Shown in pieces: positions 3,085-23,396 of a DNA stretch of 36,974 bases. Source of the DNA: a virus. Under the pieces are notes generated by a model. It saw only the letters and a list, made by a program, of their open reading frames with translations. It ran no database searches and was not told the DNA's origin. The DNA is taken from IMG/VR virus record IMGVR_UViG_3300045988_122510, positions 1 to 36,974 of that record; one strand, 5' to 3'. Positions within the stretch are counted from its first letter, which is position 1. Each line of letters opens with the position of its first letter. The position numbers and the translations under genes are program-made.

Positions 3085-4812
3085 ATGATAGATGAAAAAT
3101 TACAAGAAAAGTTGTTAAGTGTATTTGATAAAAGATTTCAAGATTATAATACAAAAGTATTAGAAAAATTAGGAAATGTTATCAAGCAATTTAAAGACTT
3201 AACTCCATCACAGGCTTACGAGTTAGGTCAGCAACTAAAATACAATACAACTGTCAAGGACTTACTAGATGAGTTATCTAAAATAAGTGGCTTGTCTGTT
3301 AAAGACTTGAAAGCAATACTAGAAAAGGTTGCAAAAGAAAACATTGGATTTGCGGATACTTATTATAAATCAAGAGGCTTGGAAACACCTATTTATAGTG
3401 AAAATAAAGCACTACAAAGGCTCGTTAATTCAGTTTATAATATAACTGGCAAAGAATTTAAAAACATTTCCAAAAGCACAGGATTTAGACTTTTGGATAA
3501 GGATAAAAAGCCTTTATTATTAAATATTAACGAAGTTTATAAAGAAGTTATTGATAGAAGTGTAATAGCTGTTAGCGAAGGTAAGGAATCTTACCAACAA
3601 GTTATGAGAAACACACTTCGACAATTGAGTGAAAGTGGAGTTCGTAAAATTGAGTATGAAAGTGGTTACTCTAGAAGAATAGATACAAGTGTTAGGATGA
3701 ATGTTTTAGATGGAATGAGACAAGTGGCAAATGAAAGCCAACAATTATTTGGACAAGAATTTGACAGTGATGGTATAGAAATATCTGTTCATCAAAATCC
3801 AGCTGATGATCATAGCATAGTTCAAGGACGTCAATTTTCAAATAAAGAATATGAAAAATTGCAAGAAACAGGAATTGCTACTGACTATACTGGCAAAGTA
3901 ATTGACATAAATTTAAAAAAGGGATTTAGACCCATATCAACACTCAACTGCTATCATTACATATTTTCAATAGTGTTAGGTGTGAGCAAACCGAGATATA
4001 GTGAAAAAGAATTACAAGATATAAACGAAAAGAATAAAAAAGGGTTTGAATTTGAGGGTAAACATTATACAATGTATGAAGGCACACAATTACAAAGAAA
4101 AATCGAAACTGCTATTCGTGAAGCAAAAGATACACAAATATTGGCTAAATCAAGTGGTGATGATGATTTGGTATTACAAAGCCAAACAAGAATTACACAA
4201 TTAACTACTAAATACAAAAAATTATGTAACGTTAGTGGACTACCTGATAAGTTATCTACTAGAGCAAGTGTAAGTGGCTATAAAAGAACTAAAATTAATA
4301 AAAAACCAAGTATAGTAAAATTTAAAAATGAAGTTGATTTTACTAAAAGCAATCATCCTAAGCCAATTTTGCTTGAAAAAATAGAACGAAAACAAATTGA
4401 TCAAAGAATAACATATTATGAAGATTTAATAAGAAAAAGCGATATAGAAAATGCTATTATTGTAACTAAAAATAATGAAGTTTATCAATGCTTTGGAAAT
4501 AAAGATAACGTATGGCCTGATATTGATTTACCTGATAAATTAGAAAATGCCATTGTGACTCATAATCATTTGAAGGAAAAAACAAGTTTTACATTTAGTA
4601 ATGATGATATTTCATTTTTTGAAAAGAACAAATTAAAAAAATTAAGAGGAACTGATTATAAATACGTTTATGAATTAGATAAAAATGGCAAACCCACATT
4701 AAAAGAACCATTGCTTGACGAAATGGTAGAAGATGGTTCTCTTGAATATATAAAAGCAATAAATTATGCCATTAAAAATGATATTTCTTTTAAAAGATGG
4801 AGACTAAAATGA
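3085..4812 (+). CDS. head morphogenesis / minor capsid protein (MuF, SPP1 gp7-like) with a ~170-aa C-terminal extension
   Basis: Family-typical block YSRRIDTSVRMNVLDGMRQV...GIEISVHQNPADDHSIVQGRQFS, followed by GKHYTMYEGTQLQRKIE. At 575 aa it is longer than the core domain. Confidence 0.8.
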   Translation: MIDEKLQEKLLSVFDKRFQDYNTKVLEKLGNVIKQFKDLTPSQAYELGQQLKYNTTVKDLLDELSKISGLSVKDLKAILEKVAKENIGFADTYYKSRGLETPIYSENKALQRLVNSVYNITGKEFKNISKSTGFRLLDKDKKPLLLNINEVYKEVIDRSVIAVSEGKESYQQVMRNTLRQLSESGVRKIEYESGYSRRIDTSVRMNVLDGMRQVANESQQLFGQEFDSDGIEISVHQNPADDHSIVQGRQFSNKEYEKLQETGIATDYTGKVIDINLKKGFRPISTLNCYHYIFSIVLGVSKPRYSEKELQDINEKNKKGFEFEGKHYTMYEGTQLQRKIETAIREAKDTQILAKSSGDDDLVLQSQTRITQLTTKYKKLCNVSGLPDKLSTRASVSGYKRTKINKKPSIVKFKNEVDFTKSNHPKPILLEKIERKQIDQRITYYEDLIRKSDIENAIIVTKNNEVYQCFGNKDNVWPDIDLPDKLENAIVTHNHLKEKTSFTFSNDDISFFEKNKLKKLRGTDYKYVYELDKNGKPTLKEPLLDEMVEDGSLEYIKAINYAIKNDISFKRWRLK

Positions 4813-6566: not shown

Positions 6567-6835
6567 ATGGCTAACGTAATCGCATTAGCAAAGAAATATA
6601 CTCGTCTTGTTGATGAAAAATATCAAAAAGAGAGTTTAACAAATGATTTAACTAGCCCAGCTTCACTTGCTAGAGAAGGAGCTAACGCAAAAGAAATTCT
6701 TTATAGACAAGTAGGAGTTAGTGGATTAGGAGATTATTCAAGAAATAGTGGTTATACAAATAACAGTGTAACTGTTGAATGGAAAACTGCTACATTTAAT
6801 TATGATAGAGGTACTAAAATTACTCTAGACACGAT
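6567..6835 (+). CDS. major capsid protein, exon 1
   Basis: Abundant-structural-protein style ORF ending ...FNYDRGTKITLDT. The frame hits a stop 6 codons past the proposed 5' splice site. Confidence 0.75.
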
Positions 6836-7616
6836 AAACTTAGTTTGTGCTTAATCTGTCGTGTATAAATCCCTGAATTAAGCTGGAAAGCTAAGTTCAA
6901 TATATGGTATAATATATATAGGTGATAATATGAAATGTATTTGTTCAATTTGTAAAAAAGAATTTGACAGAAAACCTGCTTTAATTAAAAGAGCAAAATA
7001 TCCTGTTTGTTCTAGAGAATGCCAAACAGAATTAAAAAAGAAAAGAAAAATAGTACATTGTGTTATATGTGGAAAAGAATTATTAAGAAGTGATAACAGA
7101 TTAGCAATAAGACCTAATCCAACTTGTTCAAAAGAGTGTAAGGCAAAACTTCAACATAAATTATCATATAATCCAAATATAACCGATGAAGAAAGAGAAC
7201 AAACAAGAAAAAATCAAAAAAATTATGATTTTATTAAAATAGTTTTACAAAGAGATAATTATACTTGCCAATTATGTGGCGAATATGGGCAAAAGTTAGT
7301 TGTTCATCATCTAAATGGATATAATTGGGATAAAGAAAATAGATATAATGTAGACAATGGAATAACATTATGTGAAAAATGCCATAAAGCATTTCATAAA
7401 ATATATAGAAATGGAAATAATACCAAAGAACAATATATTGAATACGCTAATCAGAACCGAAGGCTAGATTAAGTCTAGTCAGGGGCAACGCATAGTAGGT
7501 GAAAAGATATAATCCTACCACGAGGCAGGGACAACTTAAAAGTTGAAAAGATATGCTGAGCTTATAGGAAACTATAAGAAGTAAAAGATAAAAAGCTTTT
7601 ACGATAACAAAAAATG
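6836..7616 (+). mobile_element. group I intron (781 nt) in the major capsid gene
   Basis: P1: exon ACACGAT (6829-6835) pairs with GTCGTGT (6858-6864), with a U-G pair at the splice site. P10: exon 2 GGAT (7617-7620) pairs with ATCT (6854-6857). The intron ends in G. Exon lengths 269+613 = 882 nt, in frame. Confidence 0.75.
6930..7472 (+). CDS. intron-encoded HNH homing endonuclease
   Basis: HNH core CQLCGEYGQKLVVHHLNGYNWDKENRYNVDNGITLCEKCHKAFH. Two N-terminal CxxC...C zinc-ribbon repeats. It has its own TGgTATAAT (6905-6913) and an SD. Confidence 0.85.
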   Translation: MKCICSICKKEFDRKPALIKRAKYPVCSRECQTELKKKRKIVHCVICGKELLRSDNRLAIRPNPTCSKECKAKLQHKLSYNPNITDEEREQTRKNQKNYDFIKIVLQRDNYTCQLCGEYGQKLVVHHLNGYNWDKENRYNVDNGITLCEKCHKAFHKIYRNGNNTKEQYIEYANQNRRLD

Positions 7617-8229
7617 GGATAATGAAGAAACAATGGGAGATACTTATTTAATCGCTCAAAATTCATTACAAACTTATCAAGTAGCACCAGAAGGAGACGC
7701 ATTCACATTTGCTACAATCGCTAGCAAAGCTGGTATTTCTGTATCAGCAGAAGATGGTGAAACATTCGCAGATGGAGAAGCATTCTTAACAGCATTATTA
7801 AAAGGTGTTACAAAAATGGACGAAGACCAAGTTCCAGCAGAAAATAGAATATTATATGCTACACCAACATTATTAAATAGTGTTATGGCATTAGATACTA
7901 CTAAATCAAGAGAAGTATTAGGAAAATTTGCAAAGACTGTTGCAATTCCACAAACTCGTTTCTATACTAAAATTGACTTATTAGATGGAACATCAAGTAA
8001 TGAAGAAATGGGTGGATTTAAGAAAGATGTTGCTGGTAAAGATATTAACTTTATGATTATTCACAAACCAGCTGTTATCAAATTTGATAAACATGTTGTA
8101 TCAGACGCAATTCCACCAGAATTAAATGCAGACGCTGACGCATATATCTCTAAATATAGAAAATATGGTTTAGTTGATGTATTTAACAACAAAACTGCTG
8201 GTATCTATATTTCATACAAAGCAGCATAA
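7617..8229 (+). CDS. major capsid protein, exon 2
   Basis: The frame is open from 7585. Splicing creates ...DRGTKITLDT-M-DNEETMGDTYLIAQ... The composite protein is 293 aa. Confidence 0.75.
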
Positions 8230-18120: not shown

Positions 18121-18187
18121 ATGAATTTTCAAGAATTTATCAATAAAACTTTAGGAAAGGCTATTGATGTAGATGGAGTATATGGGT
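18121..18187 (+). CDS. CHAP-domain endolysin, exon 1
   Basis: SD AAGGAGG upstream. Translation is MNFQEFINKTLGKAIDVDGVYG. The frame stops 2 codons past the proposed splice site. Confidence 0.8.
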
Positions 18188-19033
18188 TAAATTAATTGTG
18201 GCTCATGTAAAATCAGGTGAATTGCTGGAACACCCTTAGAGCCTTATAAACTACAACATAGTTAGTAATAACAAGTGTGAATGTTTGAAAATTATAAGGA
18301 TTGGGCAATCAGCAACCAAGTATCATTGGTAACAGGTGATAAAGGCTTAACGACTAAGTACTTACAATCGTAAGTTAGTGCCTGATAATGTAATCATTTT
18401 GAAATATTATTACTTTGGGGTATAATAGACATAAACGAGGCGATAATATGAAAATAAAACATGGTATGTGTGGTACAAAAGCATATCAAGCATGGAAAGC
18501 GATGAAGCAAAGATGTTATAACAAAAATTATGAACATTATGATAGATACGGTGGCAGAGGAATAAAAGTATCAGAAGAATGGATTAATTCTTTTGAAGTA
18601 TTTTATAAAGATATGGGAAAGCCTCCAACTTCGAAACATCAAATAGATAGAATAAATAATGACGGCAATTATTGTAAAGATAATTGCAGATGGGCAACAC
18701 CATCAGAAAATTGTTATAATAGAAAAAAATATTTTAATAAGACAGGATTTACAGGTGTTAGTGAAAACACTAGCAAAAAAGGAAGATATTCAGCATATTT
18801 CTTCTACAAAAGGAAACATATACAAGTCGGAACATTTGCAAGTCCTGAAGAAGCATATCGTGAAAGAATAAAAGCAATAAAGAAATTCAACAAAGAAAAT
18901 AATGAGAATTTAAAATATATTGAATATGAAGATTACATTAAAGATATAGTCTGACCTTATGTGAAAGCATAAGAGAATTATTATAAAAACATAAAAAGAA
19001 ATTATTATGTGGAGAGATAATTCGTAACAATTG
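18188..19033 (+). mobile_element. group I intron (846 nt) in the endolysin gene
   Basis: The internal guide TTGTGGCTCAT (18196-18206) pairs with the ligated exons ATGGGT|CACAA. P1 is 18182-18187 with a U-G pair at the splice site. P10 is 19034-19038. The intron ends in G. Exon lengths 67+701 = 768 nt, in frame. Confidence 0.85.
18448..18954 (+). CDS. intron-encoded HNH (HNH_3-type) endonuclease with an AP2-like DNA-binding domain
   Basis: IDRINNDGNYCKDNCRWATPSENCYN is the HNH_3 core. FTGVS...YSAYFFYKRKHIQVGTFASPEEAYRERIKA is AP2-like. ATG 18448 follows an SD. The track start at 18415 is a TTG. Confidence 0.8.
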   Translation: MKIKHGMCGTKAYQAWKAMKQRCYNKNYEHYDRYGGRGIKVSEEWINSFEVFYKDMGKPPTSKHQIDRINNDGNYCKDNCRWATPSENCYNRKKYFNKTGFTGVSENTSKKGRYSAYFFYKRKHIQVGTFASPEEAYRERIKAIKKFNKENNENLKYIEYEDYIKDIV

Positions 19034-19734
19034 CACAATGCGTAGATTTATTTAACTACTTTAACAAACTATACAATAACGGAGTATATATTAACTGTAG
19101 ACCAAGTGGTTATGCACGCTCTATAGCTCAAAACAAGGCAAATAATGGACTATTAAACTACTATACCGAAACTACAGTAAATAATATGATTTTCGGAACT
19201 GTTGTTGTTTGGGGTGAGTGTAGAATAGCACCTAAGAGTCATATAGGCTTTTTCCTAGAAGATAATGGAAATGGAACTTTCAAATGCTTACAGCAGAATG
19301 CACCGAAACCATACACTACTATCAATAATATGCCATACGAGGGCATTATAGGAGCATTCATTCCTAAACAGTTAATTAGGCAAGAACAACCTAAAGAAGC
19401 TGACCAAGTGCTTAGTATAGGCTCTAGAGTTAAGTTTAATGGAATGTTTAAAGTAACTTGTTTAGACATACCTCATAATTTATTTGGTAGTACACAACTA
19501 ACTGGTAGAACAGTAGCAAGTTATCATTGGTTGCCTAGTGAAGACTTTACAGAAGTAGATGGGAATGGAAATCCTACCGAAGACCAAATGTTAGGAATTG
19601 GAAGCTTAGTTAAAAATGACAAGATTTATACAGTACAAGCTACTGATAAGAAATCTAATTCTGCTATGTTAAATATTAACGGTAGAACAGTATGGGTATT
19701 TAGTGGAAATTTATATGAGGTAAGCAATTCGTGA
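19034..19734 (+). CDS. CHAP-domain endolysin, exon 2 (CHAP core plus SH3b-like repeats)
   Basis: Splicing gives DVDGVYG-S-QCVDLFNYF, which contains the CHAP catalytic Cys motif. The His motif SHIGFFLED lies downstream. The C-terminus has two IGS-x-VK repeats. Confidence 0.8.
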
Positions 19735-23319: not shown

Positions 23320-23396
23320 GGGTAGATACTCAAGTGGTCTAAGAGGCAAATCTGCAAAATTTGTATTCATGGGTTCGAATCCCATTCTGCCCTCCA
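23320..23396 (+). tRNA. tRNA-Cys (anticodon GCA) with an encoded CCA
   Basis: Hand-folded cloverleaf. Acceptor GGGTAGA/TCTGCCC. Anticodon stem CAAAT/ATTTG with loop CTGCAAA. T arm ATGGG-TTCGAAT-CCCAT. Discriminator U73, a Cys identity element. A13/A22 mismatch. Confidence 0.8.

Follow-up and report, generated by a model that had tools for sequence, protein, structure and literature searches.

The major capsid gene (phrog_422) of a Firmicute phage is very probably interrupted, at positions 6836-7616 of the DNA analysed here, by a mobile group I intron that encodes an HNH endonuclease and is spliced by the group I pathway. The window, meaning the whole stretch of 36,974 nucleotides taken from one IMG/VR virus record, had been read in this way by a first-pass annotation made from the letters alone, and this reading is now supported by intron-less alleles of the gene, by a covarying ribozyme core and by covarying splice-site helices (P1 and P10).

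Insertion boundaries in the capsid gene

The capsid locus comprises the following features:
6567-6835, plus strand: capsid exon 1, 269 nt (89 codons plus AT), phrog_422 profile positions 1-87
6836-7616, plus strand: very probable group I intron, 781 nt, a segment absent from 93-94% identical intron-less alleles
6930-7472, plus strand: putative HNH homing-endonuclease ORF, 180 aa, in L5; Pfam HNH PF01844, phrog_1271
7617-8229, plus strand: capsid exon 2, 613 nt including the stop, phrog_422 profile positions 106-294

Both parts of the broken capsid ORF described at first pass, 6567-6854 (95 aa) and 7633-8229 (198 aa), are present and match PHROG 422 'major head protein'. Excising 6836-7616 restores an intact 882-nt, 293-aa capsid ORF: the exon lengths add up as had been claimed (269 + 613 = 882 nt, or 293 aa and a stop), and the insertion splits a conserved Met codon (LDT-M-DNEET) after its second base. 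The predicted ATG is rebuilt there as AT/G, giving the junction DRGTKITLDT-M-DNEETMG.

The boundaries are fixed by alleles that carry no insertion. Three IMG/VR contigs (L013, L014 and L015) hold uninterrupted 882-nt genes with 93-94% nucleotide identity to exon 1 plus exon 2; exon 1 is collinear with them as far as T6835, and their junction, GACAC(A/T)AT followed by GGATAATGAAG, is the proposed exon join (L013 reads TTAGATACTATGGATAATGAAG around the insertion site). Because T6835 differs from G7616 and A6836 from G7617, the boundary cannot slide and has a single register, and the splice sites placed by the annotation after T6835 and G7616 prove exact to the base. The predicted spliced junction is GACACGAT/GGATAATG, with ITLDTMDNEETMGDTYLIAQNSLQTYQVAPEGDAFTFATIASK as the junction-spanning peptide. 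Furthermore, a MAG contig (L213) matches with a 95%-identical capsid protein in one uninterrupted 879-nt stretch, and the capsid proteins of all four intron-minus alleles are 95-96% identical.

The block DRG-x5-D-x-MDNEET, which the annotation had named, is real: homologs without the interruption have DRGRKFSVDNMDNEET, DRGRSFTVDSMDNEET and DRGRKFTVDAMDNEET in gap-free alignment. No gap opens at the junction when seven more distantly related capsid proteins, also uninterrupted, are aligned, and MDNEET is conserved in them. In 65 phage records one tblastn match spans 80% or more of the spliced protein and, among the matches listed, single capsid matches are found in all 80 relatives from the genome collection and all 80 from IMG/VR.

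Ribozyme core and splice-site helices

The elements of the core and of the splice sites are, in order:
6829-6835, plus strand: P1 5' strand in the exon, ACACGAU, with U6835 at the splice site in the pair U6835.G6858
6854-6864, plus strand: internal guide sequence, P10 part AUCU (6854-6857) and P1 part GUCGUGU (6858-6864), both covarying with the exons in relatives
6870-6875, plus strand: P3 5' strand UCCCUG, pairing with 7526-7531; 6 of 6 pairs changed on both sides across the family
6883-6891, plus strand: P4 5' strand CUGG (6883-6886), J4/5 AA and P5 5' strand AGC (6889-6891); RNAalifold columns 44-52 with 139-147
6895-6905, plus strand: P5a 5' strand, pairing with 7433-7443 (11 bp) and closing the ORF-holding loop
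7433-7454, plus strand: 3' strands of P5a (7433-7443), P5 (GCU, 7446-7448) and P4 (UCAG, 7451-7454)
7457-7484, plus strand: P6 (CC 7457-7458 with GG 7483-7484) and P6a hairpin (7462-7468 with 7474-7480); every pair covaries
7488-7494, plus strand: P7 5' strand, with A7488, bulged C7489 and G7490-A7494; helix 5, 100% paired
7495-7518, plus strand: domain-7 hairpin P7.1, GUAGG (7495-7499) with CCUAC (7514-7518), 14-nt loop; helix 6, 99.6% paired, 5 of 5 pairs covarying
7526-7531, plus strand: P3 3' strand CAGGGA, with an invariant CACGAG directly before it
7532-7545, plus strand: P8 hairpin, CAACU with AGUUG; helix 7, 97.3% paired
7546-7557, plus strand: J8/7 AAAAGA and P7 3' strand UAUGCU (7552-7557)
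7561-7578, plus strand: P9 hairpin with GAAA tetraloop; helix 8, 97.8% paired
7581-7602, plus strand: P9.1 hairpin with invariant loop AUAAAAAG; helix 9, 97.8% paired
7603-7616, plus strand: 3' tail GAUAACAAAAAAUG, with GAUAAC invariant in the family and terminal G7616; 3' boundary set by intron-less alleles

The fold was read from an alignment of 51 non-redundant relatives with the window, 52 sequences in all. In alignment A3 all sequences were trimmed to begin just before P3; the full-length MAFFT alignment of subfamily B (A2) misregistered the 5' end of the window because the L1 and P5 of the window are longer. RNAalifold on the 52 sequences yields P3, P4, P5, P6/P6a, P7.1, P8, P9 and P9.1, with 43 of 46 pairs changed on both sides. 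When the P7 pseudoknot is added, 95.7% of pair cells are paired as against 34-41% with the partners slid, 45 of 52 pairs are changed on both sides, and double-change cells number 734 (94-183 when slid); none of 500 shuffles reaches the observed value on any measure. Of the alignment columns, 68 are conserved to at least 90% among the other 51 sequences, and at every one of them the window itself carries the consensus base; a covariance model built without the window (R1) gives a full-length match at 7485-7612 (123.7 bits, E 3.5e-23).

P4 has 4 bp including one G.U and occurs in the family as CAAG/CUUG, CGUG/CACG and CGGU/ACCG; P6 proper has 2 bp, and helices 3 and 4 (P6 and P6a) are 100% and 96.5% paired. 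In P7 the G7490-C7556 pair, next to bulged C7489, is invariant in 52 of 52 sequences and is a candidate guanosine-binding site, while the pair beyond the bulge is A-U in 35 sequences and G-C in 17. The 11 contiguous pairs of P5a come from a single sequence and were matched by 23 of 1000 shuffles (p ~0.02), which is modest support.

Several other pairings were considered. In the 5' region 6838-6843 could instead pair with 6893-6898 and 6849-6854 with 6878-6883, and a second CAGGG at 7481-7485 could compete with P3. The longer UCAGGG at 7480-7485, which complements CCCUGA at 6871-6876, was rejected as the 3' strand of P3: CAGGGGCA stays unchanged throughout subfamily B, irrespective of the P3 5' strand, and a position 5' of P7 would break group I topology. 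A local hairpin UUAAGC-UGGAAA-GCUAAG (6878-6895) was set aside as P4-P5, the long-range P4 and P5 being those that occupy the covarying columns of the family. Single-sequence folding cannot show a pseudoknotted core; minimum free energy folding of the ORF-deleted intron recovered P1, P5a, P6a, P7.1, P8, P9 and P9.1 and mispaired P3. Elsewhere in the window, a weak covariance-model match at 3449-3527 (E 0.067, with an exact GGAUAAAAAGCC) lies inside an intact 575-aa ORF (3085-4812) and was treated as chance.

At the splice sites, both helices named at first pass are found where it had placed them: P1, ACACGAU (6829-6835) with GUCGUGU (6858-6864), has 7 bp and ends in a U.G pair, and P10, AUCU (6854-6857) with GGAU (7617-7620), has 4 bp. 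P1 alone is weak evidence, since 10.6% of the U residues in the window have a 7-bp P1-like helix within 60 nt; what rises above chance is that this helix falls at an insertion boundary defined independently and accompanies a ribozyme core supported by covariation. Position 6833 is G in the window, where it pairs with C6860, and A or T in the intron-less alleles. Two relatives (L124 and L149) have ACACGGU/GCCGUGU as P1, covarying with that of the window, and others have GACU/GGUC, AUUGU/ACAAU or GCAUU/GAUGC as P10, a helix of 4-8 bp with differing sequences in six relatives. All seven members tested combine an exon-final U, an intron-final G, a P1 of 6-7 bp and a P10 of 4-8 bp, with covarying sequences. 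The exons of L124, L149 and L002 are shorter than the 150-nt flanks used on either side in the ORF-continuity test, which these three did not pass for that reason; L124 has another intron 15 nt upstream.

The HNH reading frame, its relatives and the intron subgroup

Between the capsid parts, the HNH ORF reported at first pass runs from 6930 to 7472; residues 113-156 match PF01844 (25.0 bits, cut-off 21.4) and the protein matches phrog_1271 (3e-23). Its location between the covarying P4/P5 strands (6883-6891 and 7446-7454) places it in L5. AGGTGAT stands 5 nt upstream of its ATG, and its last ~40 nt overlap P5a', P5', P4' and P6, with the stop codon in the P6a loop. In the protein, two Cys-rich repeats at the N-terminus precede an HNH at the C-terminus, and its best match among solved structures is a weak one, 5h0m (E 0.0014). 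In Staphylococcus phage PG-2021_4 and Bacillus phage BMBtp13 an HNH of the same family lies immediately 5' of the same core; the HNH adjoining the phiCP26F core copy is unrelated to that of the window.

The 180-aa protein would act as a homing endonuclease, most likely cutting or nicking the intron-less capsid alleles of co-infecting relatives, and repair from the intron-bearing copy would then spread the intron together with some flanking exon sequence. The intron is polymorphic, being present in the window and in L295 and absent from L013, L014, L015 and L213, and such sporadic presence among close relatives is consistent with homing. The sibling L295 (contig ERZ1034873 NODE-326, 94% identity) has identical junctions and an intact HNH ORF (169 of 180 aa identical). 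Moreover, it carries compensatory changes in P7.1 (3+3, which is there GGUAG/CUACC), P8 (1+1) and P9.1 (1+1), which point to ongoing selection for structure.

In unrelated phages the same core sits in genes for terminase, portal, tape-measure and capsid proteins. Its strict exact pattern occurs in at least 120 IMG/VR contigs, and the core is present in 83 GenBank phage records, nearly all unannotated; these include phages of Clostridia, Bacilli and staphylococci as well as crAss-like and jumbo phages of Yersinia, Aeromonas and Acinetobacter. Among the 83 records there is no classical model intron (Twort, SPO1, SPbeta, T4) and no experimentally validated member of the intron sequence family to which the window belongs. 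The lineage is marked by CACGAG, invariant ahead of P3', by AAAAYRUAYGCYG as its J8/7-P7 segment, by GAUAAAAAG as its P9.1 loop, by one domain-7 hairpin and by ORFs in L5. As a tentative suggestion of rather low probability, the intron could be part of a large group I lineage, uniform in structure and carried by phages, which annotation resources have missed and which may deserve a subclass and model of its own.

The Infernal search proposed at first pass was negative for this intron: Rfam RF00028 returned nothing at the gathering threshold over the whole window, nor at E <= 10 over 6700-7750. We read this as a gap in model coverage, worsened by the 543-nt ORF inside L5. At the L009 locus a homologous element was missed by RF00028 and the other intron there was detected, and the J8/7-P7 segment reads AAAAKAUAUGCYG, versus GAUAUAGUC in the RF00028 consensus. 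Subgroup IA2 is defined by the hairpins P7.1 and P7.2 and by an extended domain 9 with P9.0, P9.1 and P9.2 (PMC4227781). Instead of two domain-7 hairpins, the window has a single one (7495-7518) between P7 and P3'; in some relatives a second hairpin is nested in the P7.1 loop and not placed beside P7.1. In domain 9, P9 and P9.1 are present and covary, and the 14-nt tail is too short for P9.2.

Predicted splicing, alternative explanations and known systems

The splicing steps proposed here are those of the established group I pathway. In the late capsid transcript, the guide at 6854-6864 would pair with the end of exon 1 (P1, with U6835.G6858) and the start of exon 2 (P10), and the P4-P6 scaffold would assemble with the P3-P7-P8-P9 catalytic domain. 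Free guanosine bound at G7490-C7556 in P7 would attack after U6835, terminal G7616 would replace it, and the 3'-OH of exon 1 would attack after G7616, joining the exons into the 882-nt ORF of the 293-aa capsid protein. Catalysis and splicing in vivo are thus predictions from sequence. Without splicing, translation would end at 6852-6854 after 95 residues, so that capsid production should depend on the ribozyme.

It is unlikely that the element, although group I by descent, is a ribozyme that self-splices inefficiently, leaving the phage defective or in need of a maturase-like factor from host or phage. P4 and P6 are short (4 and 2 bp), 5' pairings compete, translation of an ORF that overlaps P5', P4' and P6 may interfere with folding, and the 83 GenBank records offer no experimental family member; however, the short P4 and P6 are common to the whole family and covary, the window follows the consensus at 68 of 68 highly conserved columns, the sibling carries compensatory substitutions and the HNH ORF is intact in both alleles.

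There is very little probability that the capsid gene is simply split by a free-standing HNH cassette, with fragments that are translated apart and assemble, or in a dead phage. Phages commonly carry HNH genes that stand alone (PMC3706429), each of the two fragments is an ORF and an in-frame ATG is available in exon 2 at 7633, but no clear ribosome-binding site precedes that ATG and neither fragment would retain the conserved MDNEE (residues 90-94 after splicing). Moreover, the insert begins after U and ends in G, with P1 and P10 to match, and the 238 nt of it outside the ORF form a ribozyme core that is conserved and covaries. Phage genes are also interrupted by inteins and group II introns, and intein annotations adjoin a family member in the terminase region of Listeria phage LIS04; here their probability is negligible, both being excluded already by the stop codon and the fold. 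The exon-1 frame stops at 6852-6854 with no in-frame read-through as an intein requires, a group II intron is opposed by the lack of a reverse-transcriptase ORF and by the length of 781 nt, and the topology, with its P3/P7 pseudoknot, is that of group I.

If the insertion is a spliced group I intron, both this phage and its sibling would make a 293-aa spliced capsid protein, and not two fragments alongside a stray HNH gene. The endolysin gene is likewise split, by a second group I intron at 18188-19033 (expected junction GTATATGGGT/CACAATGCGTAG), and gene callers will mis-annotate both genes. In the 36,974 bases analysed, two key late functions, capsid and lysis, would depend on ribozyme activity, and the phage carries two putative homing nucleases. 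Intron endonucleases were recently shown to mediate competition between co-infecting phages (PMC11620839), and the intron-plus and intron-minus capsid alleles from metagenomes (93-94% identity) form a natural pair for testing this idea. The 52-sequence alignment and structure could seed a model recovering many split phage genes, as RF00028 misses a widespread lineage. Current understanding of group I introns is unchanged by these results.

Among known systems, the Twort ribozyme has a P9/P9.1 and 3' tail that resemble those of the family, and I-HmuI is a comparable phage intron-encoded HNH homing endonuclease. IA2 introns, among them T4 td and the intron portion of the IStrons of Clostridium and Bacillus (PMC4227781; PMC3984707), are, like the intron in the window, small, AT-rich and found in phages or low-GC Gram-positive bacteria; they share with it an extra domain-7 hairpin, a P9 GAAA loop followed by P9.1, a tail of the form ...AACA..UG and peripheral-loop ORFs that may extend into the core, and differ in that P9.2 is missing from the window, whose domain 7 has a single hairpin. 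I-PfoP3I of cyanophage Pf-WMP3, an HNH endonuclease from a group IA2 intron (PMC3428280), is likewise encoded by a group I intron that interrupts a phage gene and has a sporadic distribution that implies homing; the HNH protein of the window differs from it in domain layout.

Group I introns in phage capsid genes are known from mycobacteriophage LittleE and lactococcal phage Tuc2009, and splicing in LittleE was demonstrated with RT-PCR and with protein sequence read through the junction (PMC3706429). In these phages, as in the window, an intron of ~0.8 kb in the major capsid gene follows an exon 1 that ends in U, ends itself in G, carries a homing-type endonuclease, is absent in close relatives and was defined against an intron-less allele (PMC3706429). 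Hosts, capsid families and insertion sites differ; the LittleE endonuclease is LAGLIDADG-related and transcribed in the opposite direction, whereas the HNH ORF of the window has the same orientation as the capsid gene and runs into the core. Endonuclease-bearing group I introns of capsid genes are already published (PMC3706429), and the intron in the window adds another member.

The interrupted capsid gene

The capsid locus of the window has exactly the layout described by the first-pass annotation, which had called a group I intron at 6836-7616 within the major capsid gene.

Reading frames of the capsid locus
6567-6854: capsid ORF, 5' part, 95 aa; PHROG 422 'major head protein' profile positions 1-87
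6930-7472: HNH ORF, 180 aa; PF01844 at 25 bits against a threshold of 21.4, phrog_1271 'HNH endonuclease' at 3e-23
7633-8229: capsid ORF, 3' part, 198 aa; PHROG 422 'major head protein' profile positions 106-294

Because the outer frames cover separate stretches of one profile, they are two parts of a single capsid gene and between them lack about 18 profile positions; the Pfam and PHROG matches bear out the HNH assignment of the inner frame. Joining exon 1 (6567-6835) to exon 2 (7617-8229) reproduced the annotated sum of 882 nt and the junction ...DRGTKITLDT-M-DNEETMG... in a 293-aa protein. Uninterrupted homologs of this product were found, with 65 of 50,697 phage records covering at least 80% of it in one match (tblastn). 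Six of the closest were fetched, including MT835795, Eggerthella phage PMBT5, Ruminococcus phage RG-TP1 and bajarodcaudo virus 4. All those of full length, five in number, cross the junction gap-free and share D-R-G-x5-D-x-M-D-N-E-E-T, confirming the block of related capsid proteins with which the annotation had compared the junction.

The boundaries are fixed by intron-less alleles on three IMG/VR contigs (L013-L015), whose uninterrupted 882-nt capsid genes are 93-94% identical to the two exons and read ...CTAGACAC(A/T)AT-GGATAATGA(A/G)GAAAC... across the junction (hyphen). Since the bases before the two boundaries differ (T6835 vs G7616), as do the bases after them (A6836 vs G7617), the inserted segment is 6836-7616 and nothing else; the splice sites proposed after T6835 and G7616 match these alleles in no other register. 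A fourth uninterrupted copy, on the MAG contig L213, encodes a protein 95% identical, and the other 79 genome-collection relatives among the matches listed, mostly Clostridia prophages, are single continuous matches too.

Fold and splice-site pairing

The group I fold, its boundaries and selection on both are shown by comparison with relatives, and the original intron call was correct and unusually precise.

Helices of the capsid intron (5' strand / 3' strand)
P1: 6829-35 / 6858-64, U.G at splice site
P10: 6854-57 / 7617-20
P3: 6870-75 / 7526-31
P4: 6883-86 / 7451-54
P5: 6889-91 / 7446-48
P5a: 6895-6905 / 7433-43, 11 bp
P6: 7457-58 / 7483-84
P6a: 7462-68 / 7474-80
P7: 7488, 7490-94 / 7552-57, C7489 bulged
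P7.1: 7495-99 / 7514-18
P8: 7532-36 / 7541-45
P9: 7561-67 / 7572-78, GAAA loop
P9.1: 7581-87 / 7596-7602

P2 is absent, and the 3' tail is GAUAACAAAAAAUG, ending in G7616. These positions place the HNH ORF in the P5 loop; the final 40 nt of the ORF also serve as P5a', P5', P4' and P6, with the stop codon in the P6a loop. Introns whose ORF extends into the core are known (PMC3984707).

In an alignment of the window intron, without its ORF-bearing loop, and 51 non-redundant family members, RNAalifold given no hints predicted P3, P4, P5, P6/P6a, a domain-7 hairpin, P8, P9 and P9.1, and 43 of its 46 pairs stay paired through changes on both sides. P7, which RNAalifold cannot see because it is pseudoknotted with P3, was added before pairs were counted. 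Standard pairs then occupy 95.7% of 2,657 cells (34-41% with partners shifted 1-3 columns), both-side changes occur in 734 cells vs 94-183 in the shifted controls, and none of 500 shuffles reached any of five measures. Pairing in P7 is complete (100%), with the invariant G-C pair G7490-C7556 adjoining bulged C7489 and the next pair being A-U in 35 sequences and G-C in 17. This layout is the one expected of the guanosine-binding helix described in reviews (PMC3984707). Furthermore, 68 columns are at least 90% conserved among the other 51 sequences, and at each of them the window carries the consensus base. When the 51 relatives, with the window left out, were used to build a covariance model of the 3' core, the model matched window 7485-7612 over its full length (123.7 bits, E 3.5e-23; next best in the window E 0.067).

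Seven-base-pair P1-like partners occur within 60 nt at 10.6% of U positions in the window, and P1 alone is not strong evidence. The P1 of the first-pass annotation nevertheless coincides with an independently fixed boundary, and both it and the proposed P10 covary among relatives with different exons. P1 is ACACGGU/GCCGUGU in the IMG/VR members L124 and L149, UUUCGGU/GCCGAAG in L105, AGUCGGU/GCCGACU in L185 and CAUGGU/GCCAUG in L002, while P10 varies as GACU/GGUC, AUUGU/ACAAU, GCAUU/GAUGC and UAGCAUUA/UGAUGCUG. U precedes the 5' and G the 3' splice site in all seven members tested. The sole P1 exon-strand position unlike all three intron-less alleles is G6833 (vs A or T), a synonymous Thr third base, and G is the base able to pair with C6860.

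By the standard group I pathway (PMC3984707), P1 and P10 would align the splice sites, P7-bound guanosine would attack after U6835 and be replaced by G7616, and the exon-1 3'-OH would attack after G7616. We infer both this catalysis and the target of the HNH endonuclease. Since only a 95-residue truncated product would be made from unspliced RNA, the phage relies on splicing to synthesize its capsid protein.

An imperfect inverted repeat lies in the 5' part of the intron (6838-6854 and 6878-6898), with ACUUAG (6838-43) complementary to CUAAGU (6893-98) and GCUUAA (6849-54) to UUAAGC (6878-83). Were these helices to form, the guide sequence and the P3 strand would lie inside them, and P1, P10 and P4 would face competition; the repeat may reflect chance in AT-rich RNA or an alternative fold tied to HNH ORF translation.

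Mobility and the wider intron family

Rfam gave no match for the capsid intron in the whole window at the gathering threshold or in 6700-7750 at E <= 10, and its curated group I model RF00028 gave none even at E <= 10 in window 6836-7616. RF00028 also misses the family copy in Staphylococcus phage SA2 (L009 2001-2123), yet detects a different intron 900 nt downstream at the same locus, so the negative result reflects model coverage and not the nature of the element; that RF00028 misses the whole family is an annotation-coverage gap. A decaying remnant is argued against by a 94%-identical sibling phage (28-kb metagenome contig L295) that has this intron in the identical position. Its junctions match exactly, no base differs in the 5' ribozyme part, its HNH protein is intact (169/180 identical), and the 3' core has 17 differences, most of them paired. 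In P7.1, GUAGG/CCUAC becomes GGUAG/CUACC, P8 has an A-U to U-A swap and P9.1 an A-U to G-C swap.

Intron-plus (window, L295) and intron-minus (L013-L015, L213) alleles coexist at 93-96% identity. Around the insertion site, both intron-plus alleles agree over the final 20 nt of exon 1 and the initial 42 nt of exon 2, whereas the intron-minus alleles differ from them at -3, -6, -11 and -15, the pattern expected if homing had co-converted the flanks. In Staphylococcus phage PG-2021_4 and, within a tape-measure gene, Bacillus phage BMBtp13, this core is immediately preceded by an HNH protein gene whose product is 47-48% identical to that of the window, so intron and nuclease travel together; the unrelated HNH in the phiCP26F member shows that ORFs also get exchanged.

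About 170 nt 3' of the HNH ORF (7446-7620) resemble unannotated DNA in 75-83 phage records (blastn), and the family extends to 83 GenBank phage records and, by a strict core pattern, at least 120 IMG/VR contigs. Among the hosts are Staphylococcus, Bacillus, Clostridium, Clostridioides, Listeria and Streptococcus; further copies occur in crAss-like phages and jumbo phages of Yersinia, Aeromonas and Acinetobacter. Copies are mostly labelled 'none' or 'hypothetical protein', and every annotated case lies inside a split gene: terminase (SA2, Listeria phage LIS04), tape measure (Arcanobacterium phage TPWB06), portal (C. difficile phage CD1801) or capsid (bajarodcaudo virus 1). Among the matches listed, 92 of 123 are preceded, mostly at a distance of 75-150 nt, by a 6-nt P3 partner of perfect complementarity, and are compact ORF-less introns of ~225-250 nt. 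Two subfamilies can be told apart by J3/4, P4 and J6/7; the smaller one contains the window, LIS04 and, from IMG/VR, members including L105, L124 and L149.

In L124 (IMGVR_UViG_3300043009_000020, reverse strand), a second member appears to lie in tandem just upstream of 7664-7884, across a 15-nt mini-exon (...GAUAAAAAGCUUACUGAUAAUAACAAUUUG-GGAAGAAGACACGGU-AAAAAUGACU...); the pair looks like twin introns in one gene. In L002 (bajarodcaudo virus 2, PQ006093), an ORF-less 248-nt member (2329-2576) occupies an unrelated Gly/Cys-rich gene, with a 3' exon starting GGATAAT and AAUCU in the guide sequence, both as in the window. This match could reflect shared target preference or ectopic transposition carrying exon sequence along.

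The phage and comparison with known introns

The window also contains a group I intron of another type (18188-19033), which splits a CHAP-type endolysin gene (18121-19734) and carries an HNH ORF (18415-18954; phrog_374 'HNH endonuclease', 1e-56). Below threshold, RF00028 matches this intron to either side of its ORF (18210-18386, E 9e-6, model positions 47-158; 18901-18971, E 0.013, positions 159-251). Joining 18121-18187 to 19034-19734 gives a 255-aa protein (...VYG-S-QCVDLFNYF...) whose matches to endolysin PHROGs span the junction; Pfam CHAP matches residues 19-111 at a score below the cut-off (21.9 vs 26). The intron boundaries were placed by eye, with putative P1 AUGGGU/GCUCAU and 3' end ...GUAACAAUUG. 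A tRNA gene lies at 23320-23393 (+) (RF00005, 61.3 bits, E 4.5e-11). Megablast of window 1-25000 against 50,697 deposited phage genomes found no close relative and matched only a pair of short segments inside the endolysin intron. The nearest capsid genes come from IMG/VR contigs of 22-38 kb and from a 37.5-kb contig assigned to an 'uncultured Firmicutes' MAG. GC content is 28.8%, and the window appears to belong to a small tailed phage, so far undescribed, that infects a low-GC Firmicute.

The extra domain-7 hairpin and the P9-P9.1 arrangement of the capsid intron point to subgroup IA. The published IA2 definition needs two hairpins, P7.1 and P7.2, plus P9.0-P9.2 (PMC4227781), whereas this intron has one domain-7 hairpin and no P9.2 and so falls outside it. 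Capsid-gene group I introns are on record in lactococcal phage Tuc2009 and mycobacteriophage LittleE, the latter with splicing proven by RT-PCR and N-terminal sequencing (PMC3706429), as are HNH endonucleases in phage group I introns (PMC3428280, PMC3984707). As such, the capsid intron is of an already documented type and would not surprise a specialist; the mildly novel point is the family it belongs to, which is large, almost entirely unannotated and invisible to RF00028.
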